In this document: one piece after another, positions 1-54,792 of the stretch
How positions within the stretch are numbered: the first letter of the stretch is position 1
Layout: every line of letters begins with the position of its first letter
DNA from: Chromatiales bacterium
GTDB lineage: Bacteria > Pseudomonadota > Gammaproteobacteria > SpSt-1174
Length of the DNA: 64,000 nt
Reading direction: 5' to 3'
Assembly (NCBI GenBank): GCA_014762505.1
Contig: JABURS010000029.1
Coordinates: 60,178-124,177 of the forward strand
Translations under genes and position numbers: made by a program
The notes under the pieces: generated by a model
Database searches by the model: none
What the model saw: the letters and a program-made list of their open reading frames with translations, nothing else
What the model was told of the DNA's origin: nothing

Positions 1-704
1 TAGGAGACGATCAACGTGTCCTTGTCGAACATGGCCGCCTGAAAACGCGAGTAGGGGCACATGTAGGTACAGACCTGCTCGCGCGCGAGGCCCGCCATGA
101 CGTAGGTGGTCGTCATGAGGAAGAAGGTCGTTGCATAGGCGGCAAACGGCGCCTGCCCGGTAAAGAAGGCAACGGCCAGTTCCGGGGCGTTGCCCCAGTA
201 CATGGTGAAACTGAAACCCGTCACGAAGGCGACGGCCAGCCAGAGGAGATGCGTGGCGCCGAGGCGGGCGATCTTCTCACCACCCCAGGGCTGTTTGGCC
301 AGGCGGATACGCGCCGGTCGTTCACCCTGGGTCAGCTTCTCGATGGCGATGAAGACATCGGTCCACAGGGTCTGAAAACAGAAATAGCCGCAGAAGACAC
401 GCCCGGCGATACCGGTGACGAAGAACAGCAGAAAGGCGGCGATCGCCAGCAGCCAGGCCAGCCAGAAGATGTCCTGGGGGTGAACAATCAGATCGAAGAG
501 GTAGAAGCGACGCCCGGGCAGATCCCAGAGCACGGCCTGGTCAGGCCCGACCGGCCTTTCCCAGCGCAGCCAGGGCAGCAGGAAGTAGACACCATAGGCC
601 AGGGCAAGAATGCCCCACTTGAGTCGCCGGAAGCGGCCCTTTACCGAACGCGGATAGATGGGAATGCGCTTGGCGTATAACTCGACCTGCTCTTCTGAAC
701 TCAT
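1..704 (-). CDS. ccoG: cbb3 oxidase accessory 4Fe-4S membrane protein CcoG/FixG, N-terminal part (gene continues past window start)
   Basis: Reverse-strand translation from ATG (rc of 702-704): MSSEEQVELYAKRIPIYPRSVKGRF... with TM segments and a CTYMCPY ferredoxin-type Cys motif; directly downstream of ccoNOQP. Not in the ORF track because it runs off the edge. Confidence 0.75.
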   Translation of the reverse strand, partial: MSSEEQVELYAKRIPIYPRSVKGRFRRLKWGILALAYGVYFLLPWLRWERPVGPDQAVLWDLPGRRFYLFDLIVHPQDIFWLAWLLAIAAFLLFFVTGIAGRVFCGYFCFQTLWTDVFIAIEKLTQGERPARIRLAKQPWGGEKIARLGATHLLWLAVAFVTGFSFTMYWGNAPELAVAFFTGQAPFAAYATTFFLMTTTYVMAGLAREQVCTYMCPYSRFQAAMFDKDTLIVS

Positions 705-18829: not shown

Positions 18830-19918
18830 ATGAGTGAACTGAAGAACGACCGCTTCCTGCGCGCCCTGCTGCGCGAGCCGGTCGATACCACGCCGGTGTG
18901 GATCATGCGCCAGGCCGGGCGCTACCTGCCCGAATACCGGGCCACCCGCGCGCAGGCCGGCAGCTTCATGGACCTGTGCCGCAACGCCGACCTCGCCTGC
19001 GAGGTCACGCTGCAGCCGCTGGAACGCTTCGATCTCGACGCGGCCATCCTCTTCTCCGACATCCTCACCATCCCGGACGCCATGGGCCTCGGCCTGTCCT
19101 TCGCCCAGGGCGAGGGACCGGTGTTCGCACGCCCGGTGCGCGACGCGGCTGCCATCAAGGCGCTGGGCGTCCCGGACATGGAGGACGACCTCGGCTACGT
19201 GATGAATGCCGTGCGCACCATCCGCCGCGAGCTCGATGGCCGCGTGCCACTGATCGGCTTTTCCGGCAGCCCCTGGACGCTCGCCACCTACATGGTGGAA
19301 GGTGGCTCCAGCAAGGAGTTCGCCCATGTGAAGGGCATGCTCTACGACCAGCCGGGGCTACTGCACCAGCTGCTGTCGGTTCTCTCGGTGAGCGTGGCCG
19401 AGTACCTGAACGCGCAGATCCGCGCCGGCGCACAGGCGGTGATGATCTTCGATACCTGGGGTGGCGCGCTCACGCCCGAGGCCTATCGCGAGTTCTCGCT
19501 GGACTACATGCAGCGCATCGTCGACCAGCTGATACGCGAGCACGACGGCCGGCGCGTGCCGGTGACGCTATTCACCAAGGGCGGGGGACAGTGGCTGGAG
19601 GCCATGGCCGATACCGGCTGCACCGGCCTGGGACTGGACTGGACGACCAACATCGGCGAGGCCCGCCGGCGCGTGGGTGACCGCGTTGCCCTGCAGGGCA
19701 ACCTCGACCCTGCCGTGCTCTACGCCTCGCCCGAGCGCATCCGTACCCAGGTGCGCAAGGTGCTGGAAGACTTCGGCGAGGGCAGTGGCCACGTCTTCAA
19801 TCTGGGGCACGGCATCCACCAGCACATCGATCCGGACCACGTGAAGGTGTTGGTCGACAGCGTGCACGAGATCGGCCAGCGCTTCCACAGCCGCGACGCG
19901 GTGCTCGGCCAGCGCTGA
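18830..19918 (+). CDS. hemE: uroporphyrinogen decarboxylase
   Basis: [36 protein letters not shown]...; track ORF N-extended from 18722. Confidence 0.93.
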
Positions 19919-39343: not shown

Positions 39344-41209
<1,866 letters not shown>

Positions 41210-44010: not shown

Positions 44011-44395
44011 GCGAACTCGCGTCGTCGGCGGGGGCATCTGCGGGCTTCTCGATGCGCGGGGCGGTCTCGTTCGCCGGTTCCCTGGCCGGGGACTCGTCGG
44101 CGATGGCGCGCACCAGGTAACCGGTGTCGTCCACCTCCTGCTTCACCTGCTCGCGCGTCTCGTCCATCATGCGCTTGAGGCGGTTGAGCTCCTCTTCCTG
44201 CTCACCCAGCATGCGCTTGAATTCGTCGGCCTGGAACTCGCGTTCGATGTCCGAGCGCATGCTCTGCACGTAGGAGCGGGCACGGCCCACCCAGTAGCCG
44301 GCCTTGCGCGCAAGGCCGGGCAGGCGCTCGGGCCCGACAACGAGCAGCGCCACCACCATGATGAGCAGGAATTCCGTGATCCCGGCGTCGAACAT
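43991..44395 (-). CDS. tatB: twin-arginine translocase subunit TatB
   Basis: MFDAGITEFLLIMVVALLVVGPERLP... Confidence 0.88.
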   Translation of the reverse strand: MFDAGITEFLLIMVVALLVVGPERLPGLARKAGYWVGRARSYVQSMRSDIEREFQADEFKRMLGEQEEELNRLKRMMDETREQVKQEVDDTGYLVRAIADESPAREPANETAPRIEKPADAPADDASSHERKPQ

Positions 44396-51663: not shown

Positions 51664-52110
51664 TCAGGCCGGCGGCACCTGCAGCCAGAAGGTGACCGGC
51701 CCGTTGTTCACCAGCCCGACCCGCATGTCGGCACCGAAGCGGCCGGCGGCCACCGGGGCATGCCGGGCGCAGGCCTGGTCGAGCAGGTAACCGAACAGGC
51801 GTTCGCCCTCGGCAGGCTCGGCGGCCGGCGTAAAACTCGGGCGCATCCCCTTGCGGGTATCGGCCGCGAGCGTGAACTGCGGCACCAGCAGGAGCCCGCC
51901 GCCGGTGTCCGCGAGCGAGTGGTTCATGCGTCCCGTCGCATCCTCGAAGACGCGGTAGCCGAGCAGCCGCGCCAGCAGGCGATCGGCCTGGGCCTCGGTG
52001 TCACCCCGCTCCACCCCGACCAGCACCAGCAGGCCGGCGTCGATGGCACCCACCACCTCCCCCGCGACCGTGACGCTGGCCGAATCCACGCGCTGCAGCA
52101 GGCCGATCAT
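51664..52110 (-). CDS. dtd: D-aminoacyl-tRNA deacylase
   Basis: Near full-length similarity to E. coli Dtd ([15 protein letters not shown]...GPVTFWLQV). Confidence 0.93.
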
Positions 52111-53078
52111 GCCGGCGGCAACGCGGCCCGCACGCCCAACCGGTCGGCGATATCGACCGTGGCCCCGACCAGGGCCCGGGTGATGCCGGGCTCGCCGGCG
52201 GCATGCCCGGCATCATCGATGATGCGCAGCGCGGCCTCCGGCCAGGCACGATGCAGGGCCCAGGCCTGGTCGACGGGACAGATCACGTCGTAGCGCCCGT
52301 GCACGATCACGCCCGGGATACCTGACAGGCGATGCGCATCCCGCAGCAACTGATCGGGCTCGAGGAAGGCGTGATTGACGAAGTAGTGGCACTCGATGCG
52401 CGCAAGGCTCAGGGCCACGTAGGGGTCGTCGAAGTGGGCCACCACCGAGGGGCTCTCGACCAGCGTGGCGGTGCGCCCCTCCCACAACGACCAGGCCTTG
52501 GCCGCGGCCATGCGGGCCACCTCGTCCTCGCCGGTGAGGCGCCGATGGTAGGCATGCAGGAGGTCGTCCCGCTCGGCCGGCGGGATGGGTTCGAGATAGG
52601 CCTCCCACAGATCGGGGAAGAGCCGGCTGGTACCGGCCTGGTAGAACCAGTGGATGTCCTCGTCACGGCAGAGGAAGATGCCGCGCAGGATCAGCCCCAG
52701 CACCCGTTCCGGATGGGTCTCGGCATAGGCCAGTCCCAGCGTCGAGCCCCAGGAACCGCCGAACACCACCCAGCGCTCGATGCCCAGGTGCTCGCGGATG
52801 GCCTCGATGTCGCGCACGAGGTCCCAGGTGGTGTTGTGCGCCAGCGCGGCATGCGGGGTGGAACGCCCGCAGCCACGCTGGTCGAACAGCACGATACGAT
52901 AGGCCTCGGGATCGAAGAAGCGCCGGTGATACGGCTCGCAGCCGCTGCCCGGCCCGCCGTGCAGAAACAGCACGGGCAACCCGTCCGGGTTGCCGCATTC
53001 CTCGAGATAGAGCTGGTGGCCGTGGTCCACGGCCAGCTGCGTGCTGTAATGGGGCCGTATCTCCGGGTAGAGCGTCAT
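52107..53078 (-). CDS. pip: proline iminopeptidase
   Basis: alpha/beta hydrolase with GGSWGSTL nucleophile elbow; 323 aa. Confidence 0.88.
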
Positions 53079-53105
53079 GCCTGTCTGCCTGTGGTTTGCC
53101 AGGCA

Positions 53106-53666
53106 CTAATCATGCACGGGCGCGCCCCTGAAACCAATCGCCGCCGCGATGCCGCCCAGCAGCAGTCCCAGCAGGATGAGGATCGGGCCGATACCCGTAT
53201 CCAGCACCACGCCGGCCCAGCCGATGTTGAACACCATGAGATACAGCGCACCCGAGTGCAGCAGCGTGCCCACGATGAAGACCCAGCTGATCAGCTGCTT
53301 GAACCAGACCGGCACGGCCAGGAACACCAGCACCACACCCACGGCAATGTTGAGCAGGGCCTCCAGGTTGCCATGGGCATGGGGACCGCTCTTGATGGCG
53401 TCGATGGGCGCGCGGGCATTGAGGCCGGTATTCAGGGCGAGAATGGCCTCGGCATTGGCGCGGGCGATCGCGTCCGCACTCAGCGTCTCCAGCGTGGTCT
53501 CGTCCATGAATCCGCCATCCACCCGCAGCCGCAGCTCCGACATCGCGACATTGCGCACCGCCTGCGCCTCGCCCACGGCGTCGAACTGGCTGACCATATA
53601 GGGCCCGAGGGCAGCGGTGAGGACCAGAAACAGAAAACCGAACACGACGTTCTTGCGACCGATCAT
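53106..53666 (-). CDS. hypothetical 4-TM membrane protein
   Basis: 186 aa, AAGGAGG SD; function not recognised. Confidence 0.55.
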   Translation of the reverse strand: MIGRKNVVFGFLFLVLTAALGPYMVSQFDAVGEAQAVRNVAMSELRLRVDGGFMDETTLETLSADAIARANAEAILALNTGLNARAPIDAIKSGPHAHGNLEALLNIAVGVVLVFLAVPVWFKQLISWVFIVGTLLHSGALYLMVFNIGWAGVVLDTGIGPILILLGLLLGGIAAAIGFRGAPVHD

Positions 53667-53695
53667 GGCTTGCCTCCTTTGTCTTCCTGCGACAT

Positions 53696-53711
53696 GTAGG
53701 AATATTCCTAC
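53696..53711. promoter_or_regulatory. perfect 16-bp palindrome GTAGGAATATTCCTAC (candidate operator)
   Basis: Read directly; 30 bp upstream of the start codon of the minus-strand membrane-protein gene, in the divergent region with ttcA. Confidence 0.4.
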
Positions 53712-53897
53712 AAACCCTGTCTACCATCCCCGACTGGTGAGGGTAGACCCTGCATGAGAGTATGGCAGCCACTCAGGGAGGAGTACCGGTCAGGGAGACC
53801 ACCGGGCGGGCCAGGAGGGTAACACCGTCGGGGGTGGCACGACGCCACGAGGGACCAAAGGAAACTCGCTTCAATCACCTATGCCAGGATGGCCTCA

Positions 53898-53931
53898 CCC
53901 CGACCAACGGACGGTCGGGGTTCTTCTTTTT
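53898..53931 (+). terminator. intrinsic terminator-like CCCCGACC-aacggac-GGTCGGGG + TTCTTCTTTTT in the ttcA leader
   Basis: Seen directly; followed by a second hairpin GGGCCCT-ggaaaaca-AGGGCCC (53932-53955); 80 bp before the ttcA ATG. Confidence 0.5.
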
Positions 53932-54012
53932 GGGGCCCTGGAAAACAAGGGCCCTCCCGGACAAGCCGCCCGTCACTTGCACCCCGGGGGCCCCGGCCGT
54001 ATCTTCCCCCGC

Positions 54013-54792
54013 ATGATCACACCCGTCACCCCGCCCAAGTCCCTGCTGCGCCAGGTCGGCCGCGCCATCGGCGACTATGGCCTGATCCGCGACGGCGACC
54101 GCGTGCTGCTCGGCCTGTCCGGCGGCAAGGACTCGCTCTCGCTGCTGCACCTGCTGCTGCACTTTCAGCGCCGCGCGCCGATCCGCTTCGCGGTGGGGGC
54201 GGTGACGGTAGACCCCCAGTCCGACAGCTTCGACCCCTCGGTGCTCATCCCCTACATGGAGGCCCTGGGCGTGCCGTACTTCTACCGGCGCGAGCCCATC
54301 CTGGAGCTGGCCACCGAACACATGGACAACGACTCCTACTGCGCCTTCTGCGCCCGCATGAAGCGCGGCACCATGTACAACACGGCGCGCCGCGAGGGCT
54401 ACAACGTGCTGGCCCTGGCCCAGCACCTGGACGACCTGGCCGAGAGCTTTCTCATGTCCGCCTTCCACGGCGGCCAGCTCAAGACCATGAAGGCCCATTA
54501 CGTGGTCAACGACGGCGACCTGCGGGTGATCCGCCCGCTGATCTACGTGCGCGAACGCCAGACCGCCGACTTCGCCCGGGCGACCGACCTGCCGGTGGTG
54601 GCGGACAGCTGCCCGGCCTGTTTCGACATGCCCACCCAGCGCCAGCACATGAAGGAGCTGCTGGCCGGCGAGGAGCGCGGGAATCCGCGCCTGTTCAGGA
54701 GCCTGCTCACGGCCATGCGCCCGTTGATCGAGGAGGGGCTGCCCGAGCCGGCCCGGGAAACGCCACGGACCCGTCGGCGCAGCGCCTCCTGA
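54013..54792 (+). CDS. ttcA: tRNA 2-thiocytidine(32) synthetase
   Basis: SGGKDS PP-loop, CxxC...C cluster ligands; start MITPVTPPKSLL. Confidence 0.9.
   Translation: MITPVTPPKSLLRQVGRAIGDYGLIRDGDRVLLGLSGGKDSLSLLHLLLHFQRRAPIRFAVGAVTVDPQSDSFDPSVLIPYMEALGVPYFYRREPILELATEHMDNDSYCAFCARMKRGTMYNTARREGYNVLALAQHLDDLAESFLMSAFHGGQLKTMKAHYVVNDGDLRVIRPLIYVRERQTADFARATDLPVVADSCPACFDMPTQRQHMKELLAGEERGNPRLFRSLLTAMRPLIEEGLPEPARETPRTRRRSAS

Follow-up and report, generated by a model that had tools for sequence, protein, structure and literature searches.

The stretch of DNA considered here, referred to as the window, covers 64,000 nucleotides (nt) of the genome of a Chromatiales bacterium (contig JABURS010000029.1), and all positions are counted from its first letter. 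At 53667-54012 a spacer of 346 bp lies between a membrane-protein gene on the minus strand and ttcA on the plus strand. An earlier note on this DNA had described in the spacer a palindrome, two hairpins and an 84-codon open reading frame (ORF). It had read them as a promoter, a conditional terminator and then ttcA, in the manner of a riboswitch or attenuator, with a short small RNA (sRNA) ending at 53931 as the fallback. An Rfam scan, a comparison with relatives and a wider search for the palindrome had been named as checks. The listed features are present at their places, the palindrome being 18 bp rather than 16 bp long (Table 1). It is the fallback that has gained ground, as a GGA-rich RNA followed by a terminator recurs in other genomes, and the spacer very probably holds an independent sRNA gene of the Csr/Rsm class (CsrB, CsrC, RsmX/Y/Z).

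Table 1. Features of the spacer between the membrane-protein gene and ttcA, and the two flanking genes (positions in the window)
Feature	Position	Strand	Remarks
Membrane-protein gene	53106-53666	-	186 aa, weakly DUF423/YgdD-like; first gene of the membrane-pip-dtd row; divergent neighbour of the sRNA
Perfect 18-bp inverted repeat TGTAGGAATATTCCTACA	53695-53712		Proposed upstream activating site of GacA/UvrY type
-10-like hexamer GAGTAT	53758-53763	+	Putative; preceded by TG at 53755-53756
84-codon ORF	53762-54016	+	TGA overlaps the ttcA ATG; judged not to be a gene
Predicted small RNA	about 53771-53931, about 161 nt	+	Csr/Rsm (CsrA-sequestering) type, 8 GGA motifs
Stem-loop 1, ACUC[AGGGAG]GAGU	53771-53784	+	GGA in the hexaloop
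Stem-loop 2, GGUC[AGGGA]GACC	53788-53800	+	GGA in the loop; RNAalifold consensus of five relatives
Stem-loop GUGGC[ACGAC]GCCAC	53834-53848	+	No GGA; closing pair CG, AU or UA, depending on the relative
Conserved stretch UCAAUCACC	53871-53879	+	Predicted single-stranded; most conserved stretch of the RNA family
Penultimate hairpin GCC[AGGAU]GGC	53883-53893	+	From folds of single sequences; two-sided changes in 3 of 4 helix-1 pairs among 19 copies
Intrinsic terminator	53897-53931	+	9-bp G+C-rich stem, loop AACGGAC (holds GGA), then UUCUUCUUUUU
Second hairpin GGGCCCU-N8-AGGGCCC	53933-53954	+	Not a conserved portion of the element
ttcA promoter, TTGCAC (53977-53982), 17-nt spacer, TATCTT (54000-54005), 7 nt, ATG	53977-54005	+	Predicted; conserved in comparison with L001, L201 and L203
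ttcA	54013-54792	+	PP-loop ATPase that thiolates tRNA C32; Pfam PF01171, E = 2e-18; adjoins the element and is no part of it

Upstream of the candidate sRNA stands the palindrome. The 16-bp form, GTAGGAATATTCCTAC, is found at 53696-53711, and the full 18-bp dyad starts 29 nt from the ATG of the membrane-protein gene, with its centre about 67 nt upstream of the predicted start of the sRNA. A weak -10 element is located 46 bp downstream of the palindrome. This hexamer aligns with CATAAT, CATACT or GAATAT of homologous loci, and a scan for consensus promoters did not report it; like the -10, the -35 region is weak, which would be expected for a promoter that depends on an activator. The predicted 5' end at about 53771 is based on the -10, which ends 7 nt before it, and on an invariant ACUC...GAGU hairpin, and the predicted 3' end at 53931 is based on the terminator. 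Two other promoter readings made by eye were discarded. For sigma-54 the -24 GG is not kept in the closest relative (L001, see below), and for sigma-E the spacer from a GGAAT-like -35 to TCTAC is 14 nt long, where the consensus -35/-10 spacer is about 16 nt.

Between these ends, GGA occurs at positions 53777, 53780, 53794, 53814, 53852, 53860, 53887 and 53909. Eight GGA in 164 nt compare with 2.39 ± 1.58 for segments of the same size (top 0.4%). All eight are in an A(N)GGA context, and the five ANGGA motifs among them are the single maximum of the 64-kb window, both strands included. The only other stretch of the window dense in A(N)GGA, at 40276-40520, was rejected as an RNA gene: it belongs to the coding sequence of rpoD, where it encodes a segment rich in Lys and Glu, and is an effect of composition.

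Further evidence came from other genomes. Loci (numbered with the prefix L) were fetched from species-representative genomes with the TtcA protein alone, and the best 80 of 154 relatives confirmed by tblastn were retained. The sole close relative among these 80 is L001, from a Thioalkalivibrio metagenome-assembled genome (MAG) whose ttcA is 93% identical. Other window-type relatives (L201/L202, L203 and L204/L205) were recovered via the membrane protein and, with L001, made up the five used for a consensus. When L001 is aligned with the window, the palindrome is kept, the middle is variable, and the sequence from AAGGAAACTCGCTTCAATCACC through the terminator is almost invariant.

Most of the 80 ttcA loci are without the element. 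In 17 of the 80, TGTAGG-N6-CCTACA was found 300-770 bp upstream of ttcA in sequence that is otherwise unalignable as DNA. Among these loci are T. sulfidiphilus ALJ17 (L030), Chromatiales and Thiotrichales MAGs, and many unclassified Gammaproteobacteria. Downstream of the palindrome, all 17 have a -10-like hexamer, a GGA-rich RNA, the motif CUCAAUCACC, a short hairpin whose loop holds GGA, and a G+C-rich terminator. The GGA-rich stretch is in every case crowded with CAGGGA, AAGGA, ACGGA and CAGGA. The RNAs are 142-295 nt long and contain 4.3-8.7 GGA per 100 nt; the T. sulfidiphilus homologue lies at L030:2781-2922. Because palindrome, RNA body and terminator recur together in distant genomes, these features were judged to be real, and the anatomy of the element, as read from sequence, is that of a CsrB/RsmY-type RNA with a GacA/UvrY box.

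Together with the window copy, 18 such RNAs were compared, and about 25 copies of the RNA family are in hand. In GGA content, 16 of the 18 lie above the dinucleotide shuffles made from them (P <= 0.023). Moreover, GGA bases are predicted to be more unpaired than other bases in all 18 (0.62 vs 0.41), including the window RNA (0.53 vs 0.39). Column-wise conservation of GGA between the window and L001 in the variable 5' half gave no significant difference (10/15 vs 41/72, P = 0.35), the motifs being shifted by 1-2 nt.

The consensus fold of the five relatives places GGA in the loops of stem-loops 1 and 2, of the penultimate hairpin and of the terminator. It also has GGA in a large internal loop, and leaves AGGGAC and AAGGAAAC single-stranded. 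The stem and the GGA of stem-loop 1 are invariant among these relatives, while the loop varies (AGGGAG, ACGGAC, AAGGAA, AAGGAU). In stem-loop 2, two of the four pairs are kept by two-sided changes and some cells are broken. The stem-loop without GGA has its counterpart in L001 as GGUGG...CCACC.

The 3' domain was aligned in 19 copies, three of them from metagenomes, with a covariance model. Of the cells, 93% form standard pairs, and 9 of 11 pairs, in two helices, change on both sides in a compensatory manner; the alignment was fitted to the model, which favours structure, and the margin is large, as none of 500 shuffles reached the observed values and slid controls were 28-51% paired. The terminator has 100% of its cells paired, two-sided changes in 6 of 7 pairs and GGA in the loop of most of the 19 folded copies. 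In the window its arms, CCCCGACC (53898-53905) and GGTCGGGG (53913-53920), enclose a 7-nt loop and are followed by TTCTTCTTTTT to 53931. The terminator scan picks up this hairpin; it lists 2 terminator-like sites where 0.7 were expected, which taken alone does not go beyond chance. The sequence CCAGGAUGG of the penultimate hairpin fits the CsrB repeat CAGGA(U/A/C)G and resembles RUACARGGAUGU, the consensus for CsrA obtained by SELEX (PMC7652899). An alignment of the 3' domain by MAFFT and RNAalifold was structurally wrong, giving 3 pairs only, and was replaced by the covariance model. Folding energies were no different from those of shuffles (z = -0.56, +0.12, -0.67) and are uninformative.

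The stretch UCAAUCACC was found in 17 of the 19 aligned copies and in the metagenome relatives L103 and L144. Within (C)UCAAUCACC, the heptamer AUCACCU is the same as part of the 3' tail of 16S rRNA. From this stretch it could be proposed that the RNA acts in trans by base-pairing, alone or besides CsrA binding, with single-stranded CUCAAUCACC as the seed. RNAs of dual function are known, McaS being one of them. The stretch is the most conserved of the family, is predicted to be unpaired in most copies and stands ahead of the terminator-proximal hairpins, which is a typical position for a seed. Complementary sites with at most 2 mismatches number 20 in the window (11.4 expected), and none of them lies at a notable start codon. 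In the consensus fold of the window-type relatives, moreover, a portion of the motif is base-paired with AGGGA located upstream. The GGA content, the GGA hairpins and the Gac-type box would all fit a sponge for CsrA and are left unexplained by base-pairing as such, and this alternative is considered quite unlikely.

The palindrome itself is most likely the binding site of the activator GacA/UvrY, by analogy with known systems. The GacA site upstream of rsmX/Y/Z is the 18-bp sequence TGTAAG-N6-CTTACA, located in Pseudomonas aeruginosa at -75 for rsmY and at -196 for rsmZ (PMC4950607). In Escherichia coli the UvrY footprint on csrB covers an 18-nt inverted repeat, TGTGAGAGATCTCTTACA, with an adjacent half site, TGTAGGAGA (PMC4682653). 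The window palindrome shares 5 of 6 bases in each half-site with TGTAAG-N6-CTTACA and is equal to it in length, symmetry and N6 spacing. In the close relatives L201-L205 the sequence of the arms is conserved and that of the central 6 bp differs (AATATT, ATTATT, AATCTT), which is the pattern expected where a dimer reads the site.

Between the centre of the palindrome and the predicted RNA start there are 66.5-67.5 nt in the window, L001, L016 and L026. In the other 14 loci this interval is 88.5-92.5 nt, and an extra half site, (T)TCCTACA, is found 14-15 bp beyond the palindrome on its downstream side. The two spacing classes differ by about two helical turns and have a CTGAT(A/G)G box in common. 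The distance to the divergent gene, usually pip, drifts between 23 and 121 bp. Since the distance to the sRNA -10 is fixed and that to the divergent gene is variable, the palindrome was assigned to the sRNA promoter, and not to the membrane-protein gene with which it had been associated at first. Wherever box and RNA co-occur, the box is on the upstream side of the RNA.

Taken alone the palindrome is unremarkable, because simulations often give such dyads: perfect palindromes of at least 18 bp are expected 0.6 times per 64 kb, at least one appears in 45% of first-order Markov simulations, and the window has three. With a minimum of 16 bp, there are 6 in the window vs 2.2 expected. The other long perfect palindromes are CCGGCCTTGCGCGCAAGGCCGG (22 bp, 44298-44319) and GTTGCCCTGCAGGGCAAC (18 bp, 19685-19702).

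For the wider search, metagenome contigs were scanned for TGTAGGAWWWWTCCTACA, which yielded at least 120 loci. Among the matches listed, about 12 of 120 adjoin a GGA-rich stretch (at least 9 GGA in 220 nt) vs 3.5 expected (binomial P = 2e-4), and the association of palindrome and GGA-rich RNA in metagenomes is real. About 90% of the exact matches listed have no GGA-rich RNA alongside, so the palindrome alone is not diagnostic; the search bore out an enrichment and nothing stricter. The arrangement pip / sRNA (/ ttcA) was found in 4 of the 120 matches listed (L131, L134, L157, L191). GGA-rich terminated RNAs in other contexts account for L103, L144, L145, L176, L187 and L192 among the 12. Two of these, L145:733-930 and L187:11834-12030, resemble short RNAs of about 110 nt, the size of RsmX/Y, and L176 and L118 also carry the palindrome with a GGA-rich terminated RNA.

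The palindrome could also be read as the operator of some other dimeric regulator, for example of the LuxR/NarL family, that controls the divergent row of the membrane gene, pip (proline iminopeptidase) and dtd (D-tyrosyl-tRNA deacylase), the adjacency to the RNA being incidental. It stands so near to the membrane gene in the window, and to pip elsewhere, that it must overlap the divergent promoter region, and the many metagenome matches with no RNA beside them would suit such an operator. The half-site TGTAGG is also found in the lux box of Vibrio fischeri, with another spacing. Against this stand the two fixed spacing classes on the RNA side, the drifting distance on the other, the constant orientation of box and RNA, and the change of the divergent gene from locus to locus (membrane gene or pip). 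Moreover, no such palindrome was found at homologues of the membrane gene in two of the three other contexts checked (L206-L209), which include a membrane-pip-dtd row at L208/L209, nor at pip-ttcA loci that are without the RNA. The third context, L210, has a related box, GGTAAG-N6-CCTACA, together with a divergent GGA-rich RNA. An operator for the divergent genes is therefore very unlikely, and the palindrome is treated below as the activator site of the sRNA.

It was the relation of the RNA to ttcA that had led to the idea of a riboswitch or attenuator. In that arrangement a cis-acting ttcA leader would start at about 53770, and the hairpin at 53897-53931 would be its conditional terminator. 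In the window and in 18 related loci the RNA does immediately precede ttcA, on the same strand, and attenuators are usually laid out as a terminator with a gene behind it. What speaks against a leader is the conserved sigma-70-type promoter between the terminator and the ttcA ATG, which leaves no room for one, and the lack of a Shine-Dalgarno sequence before that ATG. The promoter was called from its consensus and its conservation rather than from mapped transcription starts, and the ttcA mRNA is predicted to be leaderless, starting at or next to the ATG, after the terminator.

This layout recurs in other loci. L001 also keeps TTGC-N17-TATCTT-N7-ATG ahead of ttcA, and the general form TTGCAx-16..18-TAT(C/G)(T/G)T-6..9-ATG was found in 22 of the 79 other listed ttcA loci (23 with the window), with or without the sRNA. 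These include L001, L019-L021, L023, L024, L026, L029, L030, L034, L040, L042-L045, L049 and L054. In L027, L034 and L043, which do not have the RNA and have another gene upstream, ttcA still retains the promoter. In six loci (L014, L022, L036, L047, L048, L058) pip and ttcA are separated by a gap of about 50 nt with nothing between them.

The RNA, in turn, is found in settings that do not suit a leader. A duplicate of the same RNA occurs in tandem in L031 (2334-2532 and about 2650-2851), and related RNAs with no ttcA nearby are present in L210 and L103, with L144 in yet another context. At L210:1582-2000, on the minus strand, a GGA-rich terminated RNA with the motif CUCAUCAC runs divergently from the membrane-pip-dtd row and converges on an unrelated gene; it probably belongs to the same RNA family, as a distant member. 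In L019, L039, L041 and L044 a second, shorter GGA RNA (about 90 nt, with AUACAGGAUGUAU, which is similar to the SELEX site of CsrA) stands between the first RNA and ttcA. It is located at about 2800-2934 in L039, L041:2806-2937, L019:2861-2912 and L044:2855-2893, and is preceded only by the half site ATCCTACA.

No riboswitch or leader family of Rfam matched the region, and no antiterminator pairing is evident in the folds, a dedicated search for alternative pairings not having been made. On this comparative evidence the spacer RNA is a stand-alone gene, independent of ttcA, and a ttcA leader, now highly improbable, is largely refuted. As for the structured region that had been described, the palindrome and the terminator hairpin are conserved and the second hairpin is not: outside the window it is kept by no relatives but L201 and L202, which are 95% identical, and in alignments with the window it is missing from L001 (21-nt gap) and from L203. 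The loop of this second hairpin also holds GGA, and a weak terminator-like site on the minus strand (53967..53950) overlaps it.

That the 84-codon ORF encodes a small protein coupled translationally to ttcA by the ATGA overlap is refuted for practical purposes and has next to no probability, as the earlier note had suspected: no stop interrupts the frame in the window or in L001, where it has an in-frame 21-nt deletion, but substitutions relative to L001 at codon positions 1/2/3 number 15/9/12 in the ORF vs 5/7/41 in ttcA, there is no Shine-Dalgarno sequence before its ATG, its translation would cross the terminator and the ttcA promoter, GGA-rich and G+C-rich sequence is naturally poor in stops (stop-free runs of 35-65 codons in 18 of 18 homologous RNAs), and the homologous RNAs have no common reading frame.

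The assignment to the Csr/Rsm class can be set against published descriptions. Kulkarni et al. (2006) searched for sRNAs that regulate CsrA by five sequence features: an intergenic position, richness in AGGA/ARGGA, a rho-independent terminator, GGA in loops or single strands, and an 18-bp upstream site (PMC1488887). All five (intergenic position, GGA content, terminator, GGA in loops, upstream site) were found at the window locus.

The closest likeness is to RsmX/Y/Z of Pseudomonas. These are RNAs of about 110-160 nt with several GGA in hairpin loops or single strands and an intrinsic terminator, and in some genomes they occur as multiple or tandem paralogues. Ahead of them is an 18-bp palindromic site with N6 spacing; for P. 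aeruginosa rsmY it is at -75 (PMC4950607), as compared with about -67 here. The window RNA differs from them in having no detectable sequence or covariance-model similarity (RsmY, PrrB_RsmZ and RsmX of Rfam) and in the arms of its box, which are TGTAGG/CCTACA and not TGTAAG/CTTACA. It is further distinguished by the family-specific CUCAAUCACC, by GGA in the terminator loop and by the context pip / sRNA / ttcA, and the GGA density of the window copy is low for the class.

CsrB/CsrC of Enterobacteria and Vibrio are activated by UvrY and sequester CsrA through repeated CAGGA(U/A/C)G (PMC7652899), and the window carries CCAGGAUGG and CCAGGAGGG. Their 18-nt UvrY inverted repeat is flanked by half sites, TGTAGGAGA (PMC4682653), which may be compared with the TCCTACA of the long-spacing class. 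CsrB itself is different in scale, being about 350-420 nt long with about 18-22 sites, and has its UvrY site at about -183 and a need for integration host factor, whereas the RNA described here has about 161 nt and 8 sites, with the box at about -67 or, in the other class, -90. The sRNAs predicted by CSRNA_FIND (PMC1488887) and InvenireSRNA (PMC5568370) share the same five features. The upstream site found here is a variant of the csrB and rsmY matrices of these two programs, and their main texts make no mention of Thioalkalivibrio, Chromatiales, Ectothiorhodospiraceae or Thiotrichales.

Csr/Rsm RNAs differ in sequence between lineages, so the window RNA counts as a further member of a known RNA class. 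What is new is the variant activator box, the family-specific CUCAAUCACC and the absence of a curated Rfam family. A scan of the whole window at the gathering score returned nothing but a tRNA, and 10 homologous loci gave no Rfam match at E <= 1. Among 11 metagenome loci the only related match was to CsrB in L192 (5186-5476), which is below threshold (32 bits, E = 3e-5).

Several findings weigh against the assignment of the window RNA to this class. In the region 53000-54700 itself no Rfam family was matched even at E <= 10, the models of CsrB (RF00018), CsrC, RsmY, PrrB_RsmZ and RsmX included, and homologues of csrA and of uvrY/gacA were not found by tblastn, with approximate query sequences, in the 64-kb window or in the loci. 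Both ends of the RNA are predictions. No members of the family are poorer in GGA than the window copy and L001. Compared with their own shuffles, the 8 GGA of the window and the 7 of L001 are not significant when dinucleotides are preserved (P = 0.25 and 0.16; mononucleotide P = 0.03 and 0.05), so the Csr/Rsm assignment of both leans on homology with richer members. In the window RNA only 4 of the 8 GGA exceed 0.5 in mean unpaired probability. Each palindrome arm departs from the canonical GacA box at its fifth base, and most exact metagenome matches to the palindrome are, as noted above, without such an RNA. In addition, the nearly invariant CUCAAUCACC is not a GGA element and contains no CsrA motif, which places its role outside the sponge model, and the fit of the covariation alignment to its own model belongs on this side as well.

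Based on the features above and on the known systems, a mechanism can be proposed. The phosphorylated response regulator of the GacS/GacA (BarA/UvrY) pair would bind TGTAGGAATATTCCTACA and activate the weak-core promoter with its -10 GAGTAT. The transcript of about 161 nt would display 7-8 A(N)GGA motifs in short hairpin loops, in the terminator loop and in single-stranded stretches. CsrA/RsmA dimers would bind these motifs and thereby be titrated away from their mRNA targets. Transcription would stop at the intrinsic terminator, and ttcA would have a promoter of its own, giving a separate, leaderless mRNA. Both CsrA binding and dependence on GacA are suggested by analogy, and gacS/gacA and csrA are presumed to be present in this genome. 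A csrA gene has been reported in Thioalkalivibrio nitratis (PMC8092127). No paper was found in the literature on Csr/Rsm RNAs or GacS/GacA in Thioalkalivibrio or related sulfur oxidisers.

An extension of this mechanism concerns CUCAAUCACC, which is nearly invariant and common to relatives in unrelated genomic contexts. The RNA may be more than a plain sponge, with CUCAAUCACC acting as a seed against ribosome-binding sites of the GGUGAU type. Alternatively, CUCAAUCACC may act as an anti-GGA switch that masks one CsrA site, an idea that comes from its pairing with AGGGA in the window-type consensus. The family would then be a dual-function Csr lineage of sulfur-oxidising Gammaproteobacteria, which is a rather unlikely outcome.

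The membrane gene, pip and dtd form a conserved row (51664-53666 on the minus strand of the window) that was found in several gammaproteobacterial lineages (L201-L205, L208, L210). The gene upstream of the row differs by lineage, being ttcA with the sRNA, bipA or DrsE_2. The membrane-protein family is widespread, with more than 900 homologues; an exact-sequence look-up of the window protein returned no record, and its relatives were found by homology instead. Apart from the window and its close relatives, none of the ttcA loci has the membrane gene beside the sRNA. The ancestral order appears to have been pip (-) / sRNA (+) / ttcA (+), and in the lineage of the window the membrane-protein gene is positioned in front of pip.

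The identification is solid and of use in annotation, and it will be no surprise to specialists. With it, one riboswitch candidate and one 84-codon ORF can be struck out as false, and ttcA is flagged as a conserved leaderless mRNA. The RNA is a candidate for a new Rfam family, with about 25 copies and a 3' domain backed by covariation. The variant box TGTAGG-N6-CCTACA could help to find the remaining Gac targets in these genomes. In Gammaproteobacteria the Gac/Csr cascade acts as a master switch that governs lifestyle and carbon flow, and no Csr/Rsm RNA is curated for the groups of sulfur oxidisers concerned. If the assignment is true, it would place this cascade in chemolithoautotrophic sulfur oxidisers, namely in Thioalkalivibrio, its relatives, and the Thiotrichales and Chromatiales represented by MAGs.

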